Assembly (NCBI GenBank): GCA_041497195.1
Contig: JBGQGB010000001.1
Span: forward strand, 279,376-343,375
DNA: 64,000 nt
Source: Candidatus Doudnabacteria bacterium
GTDB lineage: Bacteria > Patescibacteriota > Doudnabacteria > UBA920 > 2-01-FULL-46-14
Direction: 5' to 3'
The position numbers and the translations under genes were made by a program. Every line of letters starts with the position of its first letter. Positions within the stretch are counted from its first letter, which is position 1. The notes beneath the pieces are model-generated. The model was not told the DNA's origin. It saw only the letters and a program-made list of their open reading frames with translations, and did not search any database. Positions 1 to 53,262 of this stretch are shown piece after piece.

Positions 1-528
1 AAAGAATCCGCTCCAGACAAACCCCCTTTCCTCCTCCCAAGCCTTCACGAAAAATAGCAGACCAAGCAGAGCAAAAAAAATAAACACGCCTTCCAGCAGA
101 CCCAGTCGGCCGGTCCAAACAAAATAATTATTCAGAACCAGCGCCACTGCCGAAAAAAAAGCGATTCTCTCGTTGCCCAAACGCTTGCCGATAAAAAATA
201 CCACCAATATGCTGCCGAGTGCGGCCAAAGCCGAGGGTAGACGCGACACAACTGCCGAGACGCCCAAAACTTTGAAAAAAATATGTTGAATCAAAAAAAA
301 CAACGGCGGGTGATCATGAAACGAGAGAAAAGACCAAGCTGGTCTGTGCCCAAACCATTGCACCGGCGTAGTTTGAACGAGCGAGCCTAAATAATCAAAA
401 TAACCGACAGAACGGAACGCATAGTGCCCGTCATCGCTGAGCATATCGTGTCGGCCCAGGCGGAAAAAAATTAAAAACGCGGCCAGCACCACCAAACCAG
501 TCAAAACCTTGTTCCAGCTGAATTTCAT
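1..528 (-). CDS. Partial (N-terminal part; continues past window start) polytopic membrane glycosyltransferase, GT39/ArnT/PMT-like
   Basis: Minus-strand ORF starting ATG at 526-528 (ATGA overlap with upstream GT4 stop); translation MKFSWNKVLTGLVVLAAFLIFFRLGRHDMLSDDGHYAFRSV...IGKRLGNERIAFFSAVALVLNNYFVWTGR typical of ArnT/PMT-family N-termini; not in ORF track because it runs off the window. Confidence 0.5.
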   Translation of the reverse strand, partial: MKFSWNKVLTGLVVLAAFLIFFRLGRHDMLSDDGHYAFRSVGYFDYLGSLVQTTPVQWFGHRPAWSFLSFHDHPPLFFLIQHIFFKVLGVSAVVSRLPSALAALGSILVVFFIGKRLGNERIAFFSAVALVLNNYFVWTGRLGLLEGVFIFFALLGLLFFVKAWEEERGFVWSGFF

Positions 529-47352: not shown

Positions 47353-48441
47353 ATGAACAAAGAGCACATCTATTTTAACGCTTTCAACCAGGTCGGCCAA
47401 ATCGGTTCGGTCCGGTTTCGCAAACTCCTGAATCATTTCCCGGACATGGAAACAGCCTGGCGCGCCCCTATGGGTGAATATTTGAGAGCTGGGCTGGAGG
47501 AGCCGATAGTCCAAAAAATCCTGGAAATCAAGACGCAAATCGAGCCGGAAGCCGAATTTGAAAAATTGCTTAAAAAAGCCGTCACGCTCCTGACTTATCC
47601 GGAAGAGAGCTACCCGAAACTGCTCAAAGAAATCCCCAATCCGCCGATGATTTTGTATATCTTAGGGACGATTCAGGCCAAAGACGAGATGGCAGTCGCG
47701 GTAGTCGGGAGCCGCAAATTCAGCCAGTACGGCCAACAGGTGACGCAGGACATCGTGCGCGACCTGGTGCGCGCCAACATTACTGTTGTTTCCGGTTTAG
47801 CTCTCGGCATTGACGCACTCGCTCACCGCACTGCCGTCGAGTTTGATGGGCGGACCGTGGCAGTGCTGGCCTGCGGCATTGACTCGATCTACCCGGCCAA
47901 CAACCGCGTGATTGCCGACAAAATTTTGCAAGGCCACGGCGCCATCATCTCCGAGTTTCCTCTCGGCACCCCCCCGCTCAAACACCATTTCCCCCACCGC
48001 AACCGGATCATCTCCGGCCTGTCTCTGGGCACGGTGGTGATCGAAGCCGCGCTTGATTCCGGCGCGCTGATCACCGCCCAGCATGCCCTGGAACAAAATC
48101 GCCAGGTATTTGCTGTCCCAGGGTCAATCTACAATCCCGCTTCCGCTGGGCCGAATAACCTCCTCAAAATGGGGGCTAAACCAGTGACGGCGGCAACAGA
48201 CATTCTTGAGGATTTGAATCTGGGACATTTACAACAGGAATTGCTCACTGAAGAAATAGTCGGCGACAATGAAGACGAGCAAAAAATCCTCGCCATCCTC
48301 ACCCGCGTACCCCAACATTTTGACCAAATCACCCAACTAGTGAGCTTGCCCGCTGCCACAGTCGCCGCTAGTTTGACCATCATGGAAATGAAAGGCAAGG
48401 TCCGCAACCTCGGTGCCAATCAATATATCAAGCCTAGATAA
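47353..48441 (+). CDS. dprA: DNA processing protein DprA/Smf
   Basis: 362 aa; Rossmann-like VVSGLALGIDALAHRTA, C-terminal winged-helix-like tail. Confidence 0.85.
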   Translation: MNKEHIYFNAFNQVGQIGSVRFRKLLNHFPDMETAWRAPMGEYLRAGLEEPIVQKILEIKTQIEPEAEFEKLLKKAVTLLTYPEESYPKLLKEIPNPPMILYILGTIQAKDEMAVAVVGSRKFSQYGQQVTQDIVRDLVRANITVVSGLALGIDALAHRTAVEFDGRTVAVLACGIDSIYPANNRVIADKILQGHGAIISEFPLGTPPLKHHFPHRNRIISGLSLGTVVIEAALDSGALITAQHALEQNRQVFAVPGSIYNPASAGPNNLLKMGAKPVTAATDILEDLNLGHLQQELLTEEIVGDNEDEQKILAILTRVPQHFDQITQLVSLPAATVAASLTIMEMKGKVRNLGANQYIKPR

Positions 48442-49468
48442 AAAAACGGTTTTGTTTTTGCTGGCCCTCTTTGGCGCCGGCATTTTTTGGTTCAACCAAG
48501 CCTCCGCGCCGGCTGCGCGACCTTCCTCAAATTTACCACTGGCTGCTGAAACGCCGCGCCGTACCACAGTGCTCTTGACTGGCGATATTATGCTGTCGCG
48601 GAACGTGGGTGCCAAAATAGATGCCGCAAACAATCCCAGTCTGCCATTTCAAAATCTGCAGGATAACTTACAAATTGCTAGCCTGACTTTTGGCAATCTG
48701 GAGTGCCCGCTCTCGGAAAACCCCAATCCTTTGGGTGAAGGGCTGGTATTTCGCTGCCTCGCACGATTTGTTACAGGCCTCGTCACTGCGGGATTTGATG
48801 TCCTCTCGACTGCCAACAATCACGCCCTCGATCAGGGAGAAAAAAATGTAGACTACACCATCGACTATCTCGCTTCCCAAAATATTTTGCCAGTAGGCAC
48901 TGGCCATGACTTTGCCGAAGCGCATGCCGGACAAATCCTGCCGCGCAATGGAATCAAGTTTGGCTTTCTGTCCTATAGCTACACAGCGCTCAATGATGGC
49001 GGCAAAAGCACTAACCCAAAAATCGCTGACTTCAATGACACCCCACAAATGCAAAAAGACGTGGCTGCCCTGAGGGAGCGCACCGACATTGTCATCGTGA
49101 ATATGCATGCCGGGATTGAGTACACCAGACTCCCAACGCCAACGCAGATTAAATTCGCCCATGCCGCGATTGATGCTGGCGCTGACGTAGTGGTGGGCGA
49201 ACACTCGCACTGGATCCAAAATATCGACACTTACCAAGGCAAACCGGTTTTCTACGGCCTAGGGAATTTTGTGTTTGACCAGTCCTGGAGTGAGGAGACT
49301 AAAGAAGGCCTGACCGTGAAACTGAATTTCCAGGGCAAGCAACTCCAGTCCGCTGACTTGCTGCCAGTGATAATCGAAAATAATTTTCAACCACGGCCAG
49401 CGACTGCAAAAGAAACGCAGGCGATTTTACAGAAAATCAGCGCGACTTCGACCATAATCAATTTCTGA
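48413..49468 (+). CDS. capA: CapA/PgsA-family metallophosphatase (poly-gamma-glutamate/capsule synthesis protein)
   Basis: 351 aa (GTG start, overlaps dprA); signal anchor; GDIMLSR, ANNHALD, VNMHAGIEY, GEHSHW, GLGNFVFDQ motifs. Confidence 0.75.
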   Translation: MPINISSLDKKTVLFLLALFGAGIFWFNQASAPAARPSSNLPLAAETPRRTTVLLTGDIMLSRNVGAKIDAANNPSLPFQNLQDNLQIASLTFGNLECPLSENPNPLGEGLVFRCLARFVTGLVTAGFDVLSTANNHALDQGEKNVDYTIDYLASQNILPVGTGHDFAEAHAGQILPRNGIKFGFLSYSYTALNDGGKSTNPKIADFNDTPQMQKDVAALRERTDIVIVNMHAGIEYTRLPTPTQIKFAHAAIDAGADVVVGEHSHWIQNIDTYQGKPVFYGLGNFVFDQSWSEETKEGLTVKLNFQGKQLQSADLLPVIIENNFQPRPATAKETQAILQKISATSTIINF

Positions 49469-49598
49469 TTTGCAAACTTGCTGGTTTGGAATTATTATCA
49501 AAGTGTCCACTTAGCAAAGCTATGATTCACGTCAACAACGCCAATTTAATTTTTACCATCTCCTACAGTACGGGTCGGGCAAATCGTTTGCTTTGCTG

Positions 49599-49645
49599 AA
49601 GTCGGTTTCTTGAACTTGGGGCCGACTTCGGTCGGCTTTTTTTTA
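49599..49645 (+). promoter_or_regulatory. Putative transcription-attenuator: mutually exclusive hairpins ending in a U-tract terminator immediately upstream of 49668 gene
   Basis: gaagtcgg-N16-ccgacttc (49599-49629) overlaps terminator gccgac-ttcg-gtcggc-TTTTTTTT (49621-49645). Confidence 0.45.
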
Positions 49646-49667
49646 TTAGCTTTAATTTTCCAACAAA

Positions 49668-50303
49668 ATGAACAAAATACTCAATCATAATCTAATTTGG
49701 CCTGCTGTATTCATAGCTGCCTCAATCGCCGCCTCCTTCATCCGCTTCACGCCATTCCTAGTTGGCAAACTCAATTTCACGATGTTTGATCTCTACGCGC
49801 CGATCGCGGGCGGATTATTTGGCTCAACACTCGGGGCACTGACAGTATTTTCCACAGCACTTATGAACCTCATAATCCAACACGCTTACAACCCTGCTGC
49901 GTTCTTGCATCTGATTCCCGTCATCTTCGGTGCCTGGTATTTTGGCACGAACAAAAAATTGATAGCCCTAGTTCCCCTGCTGGCAATCCTGGCTTTTTGG
50001 GTCCATCCCATCGGCCGCGCAGCCTGGTATTACCCCCTGTTGTGGATTATTCCTGTGCTATGTGTGTTCTTCAAAGACCGCTCCGTGATAGCCAATGCTT
50101 TGGGAGCAACCCTCACCTCACACGCGGTGGGCGGGGTTTTATGGTTGTTTTTCTTCTCGCCGCCGCCTGCATTCTGGGTGAGTTTGATCCCGGTAGTGAT
50201 AATAGAGAGACTGATATTCACGGCGGTTTCCGTCATAATGTATGCACTAGTCAAAAAAGGCATTCAAATTCTGAAATTATATAAATTATCAACGATCAAG
50301 TAA
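49668..50303 (+). CDS. Polytopic membrane protein (ECF S-component-like?)
   Basis: 211 aa, 6 TM; upstream of CofE-like gene. Confidence 0.35.
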   Translation: MNKILNHNLIWPAVFIAASIAASFIRFTPFLVGKLNFTMFDLYAPIAGGLFGSTLGALTVFSTALMNLIIQHAYNPAAFLHLIPVIFGAWYFGTNKKLIALVPLLAILAFWVHPIGRAAWYYPLLWIIPVLCVFFKDRSVIANALGATLTSHAVGGVLWLFFFSPPPAFWVSLIPVVIIERLIFTAVSVIMYALVKKGIQILKLYKLSTIK

Positions 50304-50314
50304 GATAAACTCAT

Positions 50315-51076
50315 ATGAAATTCATCAAGGTTAAAACCCGGGTGATGCGGCCGCCGAAAGATGACATCTATCAAGTGATTGATCAGTCTCTCCCAAAGCT
50401 GCGCGAGGGTGATATCTTGGTCATCACTTCCAAAGTCTTGGCCATTCACCAGGGCCGCTGCGTAAAAATCCGAGACGGCTCGGACCAAGAAAAAAACCGC
50501 CTCATCATGACAGAGGCGGAGCGGTTCATTCCGTCGAAAAAAACCGCTTATGGTCACGTCCACCTCACCATCAAAAACCACACATTCATAGCTGATGCCG
50601 GCATAGACAAAAGCAATGGCAACGGGTATTACATCCTGTGGCCGCGGAACTTGCAAAAACTCATCCGGGAAATCAGGCAGTATCTCAAAAAACGATTCAA
50701 ACTCAAAAAATTGGGAGTTATCGTCGTAGACAGCCATCTTATCCCGATGCGGGCAGGCATAGTCGGCATAGCCGTTGGTTTTTACGGGCTACATCCACTC
50801 ATCGACTATCGGGGCCAGCCGGATATTTTCGGCCGTAAACTCGAGGTCACACGCTCGAATATTGTCGATTCTTTGGCAGCAATCAGCGTGCTCCTGATGG
50901 GCGAGGGCAACGAACAAACGCCCATACTCATTATCCGTAGCGCTAATTTCATCCGTTTCACTGACAAAAACACTTATAAACAGCTCATCTTCCCCCTGGC
51001 TGAAGACATCTTTTACCCGATCCTCAAAGCCTATCGGCGCAACAAAAGATTTGACAAAAAAACAAAACTGCAGTAA
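50315..51076 (+). CDS. F420-0:gamma-glutamyl ligase (CofE)-family protein, likely folate/other gamma-glutamyl ligase
   Basis: 253 aa; ILVITSKVLAIHQGR, FIADAGIDKSN, ILWP, VVDSH, LLMGEGNEQTP motifs characteristic of PF01996. Confidence 0.65.
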   Translation: MKFIKVKTRVMRPPKDDIYQVIDQSLPKLREGDILVITSKVLAIHQGRCVKIRDGSDQEKNRLIMTEAERFIPSKKTAYGHVHLTIKNHTFIADAGIDKSNGNGYYILWPRNLQKLIREIRQYLKKRFKLKKLGVIVVDSHLIPMRAGIVGIAVGFYGLHPLIDYRGQPDIFGRKLEVTRSNIVDSLAAISVLLMGEGNEQTPILIIRSANFIRFTDKNTYKQLIFPLAEDIFYPILKAYRRNKRFDKKTKLQ

Positions 51077-51087
51077 AACTTAGGCTT

Positions 51088-53262
51088 ATGAGTAAACTTG
51101 TTATAGTAGAAAGTCCAACCAAAGCTAAAACCATTAGCAAATTTTTGGGCAAGGAGTACAAAGTAGAATCCTCCTACGGTCATATTCGCGATTTACCCAA
51201 AAGCAAGATGGGGATTGATATCAAAAACGATTTTGCGCCGGAATACGTCATCCCGAAAGAAGCGCAAAAACGCGTGACCGCCCTCAAAAAACTGGCCAAG
51301 GCCGCTCCGGAGGTCATCCTCGCCACTGACGAAGACCGCGAAGGCGAAGCGATTGCCTGGCACTTGCGCCAAGCTTTGGATTTGTCAGAACAGAAATCCC
51401 ATAGGATCGTGTTCCACGAGATCACGAAATCCGCCATTGAAGAAGCGCTCAAAAATCCCCGCCAAATTGACGAAAAGTTGGTGGATGCGCAGCAGGCTAG
51501 GCGCATCCTGGACCGGTTGGTCGGCTACGAACTTTCCCCTTTCCTCTGGAAAAAGGTCAAACGCGGCCTCTCGGCTGGCCGCGTGCAATCTGTAGCTTTG
51601 CGTCTTGTCGTTGAGCGGGAAAGAGAAATCGAAAAATTCAAATCCCAGGAATACTGGAGCATCGAGGCCAAACTCAAAAAAGAGGATGATCCGGAAACGC
51701 AGGCCTTTGTGGCAAAACTCTCTCAAATTGACGGCAAGGGTGTGAAAAAATTTGATATTGGCACCGCGACTGAGGCGCAAAAAATCGTAAACGCTTTGGC
51801 AGATGCCGCTTATCGAATCACTGACATCACGGAAAAAGAAGCGCGGCGCTTTCCCGCTGCTCCATTTACGACCTCAACGTTGCAGCAGGAAGCTGGGCGC
51901 AAGCTCGGCTTTTCCGCTAAACAAACCATGATGGTAGCCCAGCAGCTTTATGAAACTGGCTACATTACTTATATGCGCACTGACTCGGTCAATCTCGCCG
52001 AACAAGCTTTGCGGCAAGCGCAAGAAGTCATTGTCAAAAAATTCGGTCGAAACTACGCCCTCGCCTCACCGCGCCGCTACAAAACGAAAAGCAAAGGCGC
52101 CCAGGAAGCGCACGAAGCCATCCGCCCCACTGACCTGGCGCAAGAACCAGAAATTTTGGAAGGCGGCCTTGAACCAAAACAAGCCAGACTCTACGACCTT
52201 ATCTGGAAACGCACACTCGCCAGCCAAATGGCTGAAGCGGTTTTTGATCAAACCGCAGTTGATATCGCTGCCCTGCCTGCCGGCAGGCAGGTGGACGCAA
52301 AATATCTTTTCCGCGCCACTGGCCAAGTCGTCAAATTTGAGGGATTCATAAAAGTCTACACCGAGGGCCGCGATGAAGAAGAAACAGATGAACTGCCAGA
52401 AGGCCAACTGCCCAAACTGGAAAAAAATGAGACTTTGGAAAAATTGACTCTCGACCCCAAACAACATTTTACCGAACCGCCCCCGCGCTACACGGACGCT
52501 ACCTTGGTAAAAACGCTCGAAGAATACGGCATTGGCCGCCCGTCCACCTACGCCCCGACCATCTCGACCATCATCGAACGCGGCTATGTGAACCGGCAGG
52601 AACGAAAATTTTATCCTACTGATATCGGTCTGGTGGTCAATGACATGCTGGTGGAAAATTTCCCGGAAATTGTCGATTACCAGTTCACGGCCCAAATGGA
52701 AAAAGAGCTTGATGATATTGCTGAAGGGCAGCTCAAGTGGCAACCAGTTATCAAAAAATTCTACACCCCTTTCAAATCACATCTCGAAGAAAAACAAGAG
52801 ACAGTTGAGAAACATGTGGAAATGACTGACATCCCCTGCCCCATCTGCGGCAAACCCATGGTCAAAAAATTTGGCCGGTTCGGCGCTTTCCTAGCCTGCT
52901 CTGATTACCCGAATTGCAAAGGCACCAAACCGTTGCCGGCTGACGAAGCGATCCAGAAAAAACTCGAAGCAGAAAATGCTGGCAAAACTTGCCCGGAGTG
53001 TGGGCAGGGCCAGCTGGTGGTCAAACGCGGCAAATTCGGCTATTTCCTCGGCTGCAACCGATATCCCGAATGCAAATACATCGGCAAGATCGAAAAAAAG
53101 ACTGGCGTGACTTGTCCGAAATGCAATCAGGGCGAGATCGTGGAAAAACGGACCCGCAAGGCGCGCACATTCTGGGGTTGCAACCGATATCCCGAATGCG
53201 ATTACGCAACCTGGAAATACCCGGTAGCTGAGAATAAAGAAATAAAAACGGAAGAGAAATAA
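51088..53262 (+). CDS. topA: DNA topoisomerase I with C-terminal zinc ribbons
   Basis: 724 aa; TOPRIM LVIVESPTKAKTI, catalytic-Tyr region GYITYMRTDS, three C4 zinc ribbons. Confidence 0.9.
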   Translation: MSKLVIVESPTKAKTISKFLGKEYKVESSYGHIRDLPKSKMGIDIKNDFAPEYVIPKEAQKRVTALKKLAKAAPEVILATDEDREGEAIAWHLRQALDLSEQKSHRIVFHEITKSAIEEALKNPRQIDEKLVDAQQARRILDRLVGYELSPFLWKKVKRGLSAGRVQSVALRLVVEREREIEKFKSQEYWSIEAKLKKEDDPETQAFVAKLSQIDGKGVKKFDIGTATEAQKIVNALADAAYRITDITEKEARRFPAAPFTTSTLQQEAGRKLGFSAKQTMMVAQQLYETGYITYMRTDSVNLAEQALRQAQEVIVKKFGRNYALASPRRYKTKSKGAQEAHEAIRPTDLAQEPEILEGGLEPKQARLYDLIWKRTLASQMAEAVFDQTAVDIAALPAGRQVDAKYLFRATGQVVKFEGFIKVYTEGRDEEETDELPEGQLPKLEKNETLEKLTLDPKQHFTEPPPRYTDATLVKTLEEYGIGRPSTYAPTISTIIERGYVNRQERKFYPTDIGLVVNDMLVENFPEIVDYQFTAQMEKELDDIAEGQLKWQPVIKKFYTPFKSHLEEKQETVEKHVEMTDIPCPICGKPMVKKFGRFGAFLACSDYPNCKGTKPLPADEAIQKKLEAENAGKTCPECGQGQLVVKRGKFGYFLGCNRYPECKYIGKIEKKTGVTCPKCNQGEIVEKRTRKARTFWGCNRYPECDYATWKYPVAENKEIKTEEK

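Follow-up and report, generated by a model that had tools for sequence, protein, structure and literature searches.

Introduction

Transcription attenuation by leader peptides is a known kind of gene control. In Escherichia coli, the trpL, hisL, thrL and pheM-pheST systems combine a promoter, a short leader open reading frame (ORF) and overlapping terminator and antiterminator strands, and in systems of the trpL/hisL type a ribosome at the stop codon of the leader favours the terminator, while a ribosome stalled further upstream favours readthrough. We describe here a leader with a similar layout and, in silico, a similar response to the position of the ribosome. It is the 199-nt intergenic region at 49469-49667 on the forward strand of a 64,000-nt stretch of DNA (hereafter the window) from contig JBGQGB010000001.1 of Candidatus Doudnabacteria bacterium, a member of the Patescibacteria, and it precedes the genes of a membrane protein and a CofE-family gamma-glutamyl ligase. 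We consider it reasonably probable that this leader is a ribosome-mediated (leader-peptide) transcription attenuator of a putative folate-salvage operon, which would be an undescribed instance of this kind of control.

Other leader peptides are conserved as amino-acid sequences. SpeFL, which is linked to L-ornithine, is a short leader peptide of this kind, and ribosome stalling on it changes downstream termination. TnaC (24 amino acids, linked to L-Trp) also has a conserved amino-acid sequence, and its stalled leader ribosome alters termination downstream (PMC8429421, PMC8450073). In bmrB-bmrCD of Bacillus subtilis and msrDL-msrD of streptococci, stalling on the leader ORF prevents a Rho-independent terminator, which precedes a transporter or an ABC-F gene (PMC4191407; bioRxiv 10.1101/2021.11.29.470318). 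The leader described here shares with the first two a peptide conserved in its amino acids, and with the last two a leader ORF placed before an intrinsic terminator. In terms of regulatory position and kind of target, namely an energy-coupling factor (ECF) S component and a folate glutamate ligase, it also resembles the tetrahydrofolate (THF) riboswitches. These typically precede folT and folate genes, and they are used by Firmicutes.

Patescibacteria, also called CPR (candidate phyla radiation), are not growable alone and depend on their hosts for vitamins. To our knowledge, almost nothing is known about their gene regulation, and in the literature on CPR leader peptides or attenuators we found nothing relevant.

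Results

A conserved small open reading frame in the leader

The membrane protein has 13 homologues in a large protein collection. Those encoded at loci L005, L006 and L007 are among the closest (61-66% identity); the three loci are syntenic with the window, each comes from a different sample, and each has a leader of equal size to that of the window. The leader comparisons below refer to these four sequences.

In all four loci an ORF is intact between a conserved start codon (ATG at 49522 in the window) and a stop codon at the hairpin described below. In the window, the ORF spans 49522-49599 on the forward strand, with 25 codons followed by TGA, and encodes MIHVNNANLIFTISYSTGRANRLLC; the corresponding peptides are MIHLNSANLTCTISYSTGQAVNLLG in L005, MIHLNSANFIFTTSHSTGRAAN in L006 and MIHLNSANLTFTTPHSTGLVISLTC in L007. 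The four peptides share an 18-residue block, M-I-H-[VL]-N-[NS]-A-N-[LF]-[IT]-[FC]-T-[IT]-[SP]-[YH]-S-T-G (49522-49575, forward strand), which is conserved as amino acids despite many synonymous changes. Past Gly18, the tail is variable both in sequence and in length (4-7 codons). Over codons 1-20, the variable columns at codon positions 1, 2 and 3 numbered 5, 6 and 16 (Fisher p=2e-4). Nonsynonymous divergence (dN) of the ORF was 0.15-0.25 and synonymous divergence (dS) was saturated; the dN/dS ratio of 0.08-0.22 falls in the same range as that of the membrane protein gene (0.09-0.19).

The original prediction had regarded the region upstream of the hairpins as an aptamer that matched no nameable class. 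RNAalifold on the four leaders found no conserved helix in the first 50 nt of the ORF (49522-49572), and the conserved structure was limited to the hairpin region. At the gathering score, Rfam gave no match at the leader, the matches in the window and in 20 related loci being tRNAs only. When the threshold was relaxed to E<=10 on 49380-49720, only weak look-alikes of small RNA terminators were returned, and these were aligned to the terminator. Also, a search with the leader peptides against Pfam and NCBIfam at E<=10 gave no match, and so no relative among described leader or arrest peptides. Because the ORF shows coding constraint and contains no conserved helix, we consider that the sensor would be a translated peptide rather than an RNA aptamer. 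The aptamer was therefore not borne out: judged from codon periodicity and dN/dS, the region is a conserved small ORF that is presumably translated. The statement that no nameable riboswitch class lies upstream agrees with the Rfam search, even at E<=10. As for the expression platform, which had been described as that of a riboswitch or an attenuator, the evidence favours an attenuator, in view of the terminator and antiterminator before the operon, and not a riboswitch, given a coding sensor and the lack of an Rfam match.

We also considered that the leader might be a duplicated 5' end of the membrane protein gene, since N-x-N-L-I-[WF] occurs in both. This was rejected, as the resemblance is found in the window copy only and not in P0002-P0004.

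Mutually exclusive hairpins before the membrane protein gene

The end of the ORF overlaps a set of mutually complementary strands, all read on the forward strand. Strand B (GAAGTCGGTTTC, 49598-49609) is the 5' arm of the antiterminator; it begins inside the TGA stop codon and covaries with strand C. Strand C (GGGGCCGACTTC, 49618-49629) is both the 3' arm of the antiterminator and the 5' arm of a short terminator, and strand D (49630-49636) forms the 3' side of this short terminator and of a long hairpin. Since 49621-49629 is common to both, the antiterminator and the short terminator are mutually exclusive. The short intrinsic terminator (49621-49644, forward strand) is composed of GCCGAC (49621-49626), the loop TTCG, GTCGGC (49631-49636) and T8 (49637-49644), and T8 ends 23 nt before the ATG of the membrane protein gene. 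In the long hairpin, an outer 5' arm of the form GCT..GCT (49590-49597, forward strand), which overlaps the end of the ORF, is added: GCT (49590-49592) and GCTGA (49595-49599) pair with the 3' strand of the terminator, which brings the long form up to the U tract. The TGA of the leader (49597-49599) thereby sits inside the 5' arm of the long hairpin.

The segment 49588-49644 folded with -26.3 kcal/mol, compared with -12.4 +/- 2.3 kcal/mol for 200 dinucleotide shuffles (z=-6.0), none of which was as good. The fold of the whole 199-nt leader was unremarkable (z=-1.6), and the energy of the short terminator was -12.8 kcal/mol when taken alone (about -10 to -14 kcal/mol). Thus, the two mutually exclusive hairpins followed by U8, which had been predicted upstream of the start codon, are present at these positions. 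On the extent of the hairpins the earlier description was correct as far as it went, and the long hairpin extends beyond it, through the outer arm to the U tract. Comparable signals of a hairpin with a U tract occur at the 3' ends of other genes in the window, and by this sequence signature the genome appears to use intrinsic terminators where genes end.

L005, L006 and L007, three diverged syntenic loci, retain both pairings with compensatory changes, indicating that the leader is conserved before orthologous operons. Strands B, C and D read GAAGUC, GACUUC and GUCGG in the window and in L007, GAAGCC, GGCUUU and GCCGG in L005, and GAAGUC, GGCUUC and GCCGG in L006, where B and C form a U.G pair. 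Among the four loci, B and C are separated by a loop of variable length (8-20 nt). The short terminator is kept in L005 and L006 with an A>G / U>C compensatory change, and equivalents of the outer pairing exist in L005 (TTGGCT/AGCCGG) and L007 (GCTGA/TCGGC).

Predicted effect of the ribosome position, and the hisS leader as a control

We scanned the positions of a ribosome along the leader ORF in silico. For each position, the mRNA was masked up to a point 13, 15 or 17 nt past the first nucleotide of the P site, and the pairing of the four nucleotides next to the U tract was read out by constrained minimum free energy and partition function. The base of the stem was unpaired only when the P site was on R19-R22 in the window, on A20-V21 in L005, on S16-A21 in L006 and on V20-I21 in L007, so that codons 20-21 are common to the antitermination windows of all four homologues. 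When the ribosome was placed at the stop codon, the short terminator formed in 4/4 homologues. With the ribosome left out, either the long hairpin or the short terminator abutted the U tract in 4/4, and in L006 and L007 the free RNA adopted the terminator fold. The predicted stall window, codons 19-22 (49576-49587, forward strand), starts right after Gly18 of the conserved block and lies 3-6 codons before the stop codon. Codons in it are not conserved among the homologues (R/Q/R/L, A/A/A/V, N/V/A/I and R/N/N/S). Sensing through Thr/Ile or Ser/Gly codons was considered as well and was rejected, as those positions fall outside the computed antitermination window.

The window holds a second leader, which was used for calibration. 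It spans 31385-31259 on the minus strand, and its ORF of 23 codons (31385-31314) encodes MTIQNLFAKTYHHHISPSLGEVD with three consecutive CAT (His) codons. Its hairpin (-47.9 kcal/mol, z=-5.7) has a 5' arm that overlaps the end of the ORF and a 3' arm that holds a short terminator, AACCTCTGC-AAGC-GCAGGGGTT with the T-rich run TTTTTCGTTT (31280-31259, minus strand). The leader ends 7 nt before a radical-SAM-like gene (31252-30083, minus strand), and hisS, the histidyl-tRNA synthetase gene (30007-28727), then follows. In the same scan, the stem base of this leader was unpaired only with the P site on His12-His14 or Ile15. Opening at His codons is what a His-sensing attenuator requires, and the hisS leader therefore calibrates the scan. 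Based on this modelling, 31385-31259 looks like a His-sensing attenuator of hisS, which we propose as a candidate. A TrpR-like gene (31725-31426) is located just upstream of this leader.

Promoter-like sites

By consensus scan, a promoter-like site TTGCAA-17-TATTAT is located at 49470-49498 on the forward strand, directly after the stop codon of the upstream gene, which encodes a PGA_cap-family protein. The homologous sites in L005 (2206-2241, TTGACT-17-TATGAT) and L006 (2810-2845, TTGACA-17-TATGAT) match the consensus at 10/12 and 11/12 positions, respectively, and are much stronger than that of the window. In L005 and L006, 6 nt separate the end of the -10 box from the ATG of the leader ORF, and therefore a leaderless leader mRNA is predicted; in the window and L007, the spacing between promoter and ATG differs (about 17-27 nt). 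Downstream of the terminator and up to the main ATG, the same consensus scan detected no promoter-like site at any of the four loci. L007 retains the complete leader although its upstream neighbour is encoded on the opposite strand. Considering this divergent neighbour together with the lack of a downstream promoter-like site, we consider that the leader belongs to the downstream operon, which would be transcribed through the terminator.

We also considered folate sensing via formyl-Met-dependent initiation on the leaderless mRNA. This was not adopted, as the long hairpin or else the short terminator reaches the U tract in 4/4 homologues when the ribosome is absent.

Proposed mechanism and points against it

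In the mechanism that we propose, transcription would start at the promoter abutting the upstream gene, and the leader ORF of 22-25 codons would be translated while the polymerase makes the three mutually complementary strands and the U tract. When no ribosome is nearby, or when it is far upstream, the outer arm and strand B would pair with strands C and D, and the resulting long hairpin would probably terminate transcription. When a ribosome is at or near the stop codon, it would cover the outer arm and strand B, and the C:D pairing would give the short terminator, leaving the operon off. When a ribosome is halted with its P site at about codons 19-22, it would cover only the outer arm; in this case B:C would form and strand D would stay single-stranded. 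The predicted outcome is readthrough and expression of the S-component-like transporter, the FolC2-like ligase and perhaps topA. Because the 18-residue block is conserved as amino acids and the codons of the stall window are not conserved, we favour a stall that would depend on the nascent peptide, as in arrest peptides, possibly together with a small molecule related to folate. A hungry codon seems to us the less likely cause of the stall. A more specific and tentative proposal is that the 18-residue block is a metabolite-sensing arrest peptide for folate status, or a branch of a wider regulatory-peptide family. In this variant, the ribosome would halt two to three codons after Gly18, and folate uptake and glutamylation would be switched on.

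Several points weigh against attenuation by the leader peptide. The readthrough state depends on a narrow, purely computed stall window. None of the four leader peptides has a tandem run of regulatory codons, and searches against Pfam and NCBIfam (E<=10) revealed no resemblance to a known leader or arrest peptide. From the folding models, the long hairpin, which extends to the U tract, may itself terminate; this is clearest in L005 (17 pairs). Shuffle tests of the B:C run in each sequence gave only p=0.01-0.15; as these single-sequence tests are modest, the case for B:C rests on its conservation with compensation. Also, the stop codon of L006 is earlier, and the geometry is not identical in all homologues. 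Finally, the leader is present in four independent sequences only, and the nearest other relatives are without it.

Regulated genes and their folate context

The first gene after the leader (49668-50303, forward strand) encodes a membrane protein of 211 amino acids with an ECF S-component-like fold and a putative role in folate or pterin uptake. The second (50315-51076, forward strand) encodes a CofE-family, FolC2-like gamma-glutamyl ligase (PF01996 at 8e-40). Both genes are located where they had been predicted. The AlphaFold2 model of the membrane protein had a pLDDT of 89, and its top 13 Foldseek matches in the PDB were all S components (RibU, FolT, BioY and PanT), with probabilities of 0.8-1.0 and target TM-scores of 0.6-0.70. 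On the sequence level, the match to the Pfam family ECF_trnsprt (PF12822) was below the cutoff (E=0.05, 14 bits vs a cutoff of 30.7). Judged from the model structure, the protein has the six-helix fold of ECF S components. This membrane family has no Pfam or NCBIfam family above the curated cutoff, is widespread in Patescibacteria and is present in DPANN archaea; its invariant residues include H152, E180 and R181.

The best NCBIfam model for the ligase was TIGR04132, 'putative folate metabolism gamma-glutamate ligase' (222.9 bits, below its cutoff of 350), and the CofE model TIGR01916 ranked behind it (138 bits vs a cutoff of 180.65). A CofE homologue of Chlamydia (CT611, FolC2) has been shown to replace FolC, and it can complement a folC mutant of E. 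coli (PMC1971073). For the genomic context, we sampled 80 distant loci (L017-L096) found via the membrane protein at 35-50% identity, from Patescibacteria and some DPANN archaea. The membrane protein gene adjoins a CofE-like gene in 38/80 of these, a RibD_C/DHFR-like gene in 29/80 and a dCTP deaminase gene in 4/80. From these sequence matches and gene neighbours, the best reading of the operon is a module for folate (or pterin) uptake, reduction and glutamylation. The suggestion of folate salvage in the original prediction is supported by the best match to TIGR04132, the S-component fold, the CofE-like and DHFR-like neighbours and the FolC2 precedent.

The leader is preceded by the PGA_cap-family gene (48413-49468, forward strand), which belongs to a dprA-PGA_cap operon. 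On the other side, topA (51088-53262, forward strand) starts 11 nt after the ligase gene. As this gap (51077-51088) has no terminator or promoter-like site, topA is possibly co-transcribed with the ligase gene, and an essential topoisomerase gene would then be located downstream of the attenuator. The order dprA, PGA_cap, transporter (where present), ligase and topA is kept across the clade. At L163 (1542-5123), a CofE-like gene, whose ligase is 64% identical, is followed by a gene for a Vut_1 transporter (PF02592, vitamin-uptake/YhhQ-type) and then by topA. Its gene order suggests that one transporter was exchanged for another at this locus, where the S-component-like gene does not precede the ligase gene. 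In Nomurabacteria-type loci (L045, L047, L048, L056, L064, L080, L081 and L086), the upstream gene ends with GSARSMGIEVVD, which we take to resemble the C-terminus of ribosomal protein L11. This end lies 30-50 nt upstream of the membrane protein gene, which may directly follow rplK in these loci.

Distribution of the leader and other upstream open reading frames

A profile of the four peptides was compared with all small ORFs of L005-L096, and it matched only the four known homologues. In a metagenome scan, a degenerate pattern of the leader gave 63 chance matches, none with the full peptide. Other relatives have no space for such a leader: the gap before the membrane protein gene is 41 nt in L008 and 33 nt in L015, and the genes overlap in L016. 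In L161 (933-2855), a CofE-like gene lies 21 nt after the PGA_cap gene, with neither a membrane protein gene nor a leader between them, which indicates that the leader travels with the transporter gene. Three relatives reached through close CofE-like homologues, L161 among them, added no further leader: the locus is truncated in L160, L161 has no membrane protein gene, and L163 carries Vut_1 in its place. Of the distant loci, only 7/76 carried a terminator-like hairpin in the 300 nt that precede the membrane protein gene.

Upstream of the same transporter gene, other Patescibacteria have a second family of upstream ORFs (uORFs) with 14 codons before the stop codon, MLHNYKIKTWSGYI, following the pattern M[LR][HQ]N[YD][KQH][IT][KM]TWSG[YHD][IT]. 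They start at L027:2339, L028:113, L033:870, L049:2381, L053:2375, L055:2375 and L073:2282, which is 56-197 nt upstream of the S-component-like gene, and the operon consists of the membrane protein, RibD_C-like and CofE-like genes. Of 13 codons, 3, 4 and 9 varied at codon positions 1, 2 and 3 (p=0.017), and the flanks were far more variable. The motif TWSG occurs elsewhere in the six-frame translations only 3 times. A small AU-rich hairpin includes the stop codon of this uORF in its 5' arm. Decayed copies of the uORF seem to be present in L058 and L062, and L044 has a deletion.

A layout analogous to that of the window was found in L020 (2353-2470). It has an ORF of 21 codons encoding MLLTHAHTTWSGFPSVLASGS, then GGGGCGGTTTTT, which is able to pair with AAAACTGCCC, and a terminator, AAACTGCCC-TTCACC-GGGCAGTTT with T7, located 24 nt before the membrane protein gene. 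Its computed antitermination window covers codons 17-19, and its peptide has TWSG in common with the 14-residue family. Going by their common pattern M-[IL]-H...N...[ST]-G, the window peptide, the 14-residue peptide (M-L-H-N-Y-K-I-K-T-W-S-G-Y-I) and the L020 peptide MLLTHAHTTWSGFPSVLASGS could form one undescribed regulatory-peptide family.

Discussion

Alternative explanations

The main competitor of attenuation by the leader peptide is that the ORF is an independent small-protein gene with a constitutive, leaky terminator, and that the downstream genes are expressed by unregulated basal readthrough. Purifying selection on the peptide is as strong as on a normal protein, the short and long hairpins both abut the U tract and could both terminate, and no regulatory codon run is recognisable, all of which would fit such a gene. 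However, a plain terminator does not need strand B, which is kept with compensatory changes, and the stop codon of the leader lies inside the 5' arm of the hairpin. The His-His-His leader before hisS has the same layout, and regulation is the obvious reading there. In addition, consensus scans show no separate promoter for the operon, and the peptide is absent wherever the membrane protein gene has no leader space. On this evidence, we consider an independent gene to be unlikely.

On the other hand, the leader may be an attenuator of the classical type, which senses the supply of an amino acid. In this case, the ribosome would stall at the Ser/Thr/Gly codons 14-18, the interconversion of Ser and Gly being tied to folate, or at Asn 21/22. 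The architecture is that of the trp, his and pheST systems, and the neighbouring hisS leader apparently works in this way. In each homologue, 4 of the residues at positions 10-17 are Thr or Ile, S16-T17-G18 is invariant, and AAU (Asn) is codon 21 or 22 in 3/4 homologues. However, no codon occurs in a tandem run, and a P site on codons 15-18 leaves the stem extending to the U tract in L005 and, for the most part, in the window. The codons of the antitermination window (19-22) are not conserved, whereas the whole 18-residue block is conserved including its N-terminus, which codon sensing does not need. Accordingly, sensing of an amino-acid supply appears rather improbable to us.

A metabolite-binding riboswitch is largely refuted and, in our view, very improbable. 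In this reading, 49505-49597 would bind folate or some other cofactor as an aptamer, with the hairpins acting as the expression platform. Such a platform is indeed present, and a folT-like S component with a folate ligase is a typical target of THF riboswitches. However, Rfam gave no match at gathering score or at E<=10, nor any in the 20 related loci, RNAalifold found no conserved helix in the ORF region, and substitutions follow codon periodicity (p=2e-4) in an ORF that is intact in 4/4 loci.

There is equally little probability that the hairpin is the ordinary terminator of the upstream dprA-PGA_cap operon with strand B as an accidental extension of the stem. In favour of this, it lies downstream of a co-directional gene, and many genes of this genome end in such hairpins. 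However, 150 nt separate it from the stop codon of PGA_cap, and this interval holds a promoter-like site and the conserved ORF. L007 has the whole leader next to an upstream gene of opposite orientation, and in L161 the ligase gene comes directly after PGA_cap, without an element of this kind.

Comparison with known systems

Among the known attenuators, those of the trpL/hisL type are close to the folate leader in layout, and the hisS leader of the window, with its three His codons, is a textbook-style member of this type. The folate leader differs in that it has no codon run for one amino acid and that its whole 18-residue peptide is conserved. Such a codon run is the mark of the subclass that senses amino acids, and leaders responding to drugs or ligands are not defined by it. 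Its target is a vitamin-uptake and glutamylation operon and not an amino-acid pathway. It also differs in forming one long hairpin, whose outer arm pairs with the terminator 3' strand as well, and for this reason readthrough would need a ribosome within a window of 2-4 codons. Considering that the window holds two candidate leader-peptide attenuators, ribosome-mediated attenuation appears to be in use in this lineage.

In terms of the conserved peptide, TnaC and SpeFL are the nearest parallels. In these, the ribosome stalls at the stop codon or beside it, which blocks Rho-dependent termination, whereas here the terminator is intrinsic, the predicted stall lies 3-6 codons before the stop codon, and there is no sequence similarity. 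The bmrB and msrDL leaders are nearer in the type of terminator. However, they sense ribosome-targeting drugs and control resistance genes, while the genes controlled here would serve folate salvage and no link to drugs is evident.

The regulated genes are also of wider interest. In many Patescibacteria and DPANN archaea, FolC2-like and DHFR-like genes are linked to an unannotated S-component-like family, which offers a concrete hypothesis on the means by which these symbionts obtain folate and keep it.

In their targets, the THF riboswitches are the system most like this leader. The difference lies in the sensor: the leader has no match in Rfam, including THF-I and THF-II, and its sensor region is coding and not a structured aptamer. 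Because the peptide is conserved and has no hungry-codon run, we consider that the folate leader is a candidate for a new arrest peptide responsive to a small molecule, in the place where Firmicutes use the THF riboswitch. If this is true, reduced genomes would sense a vitamin by means of the ribosome where other bacteria use the THF riboswitch.

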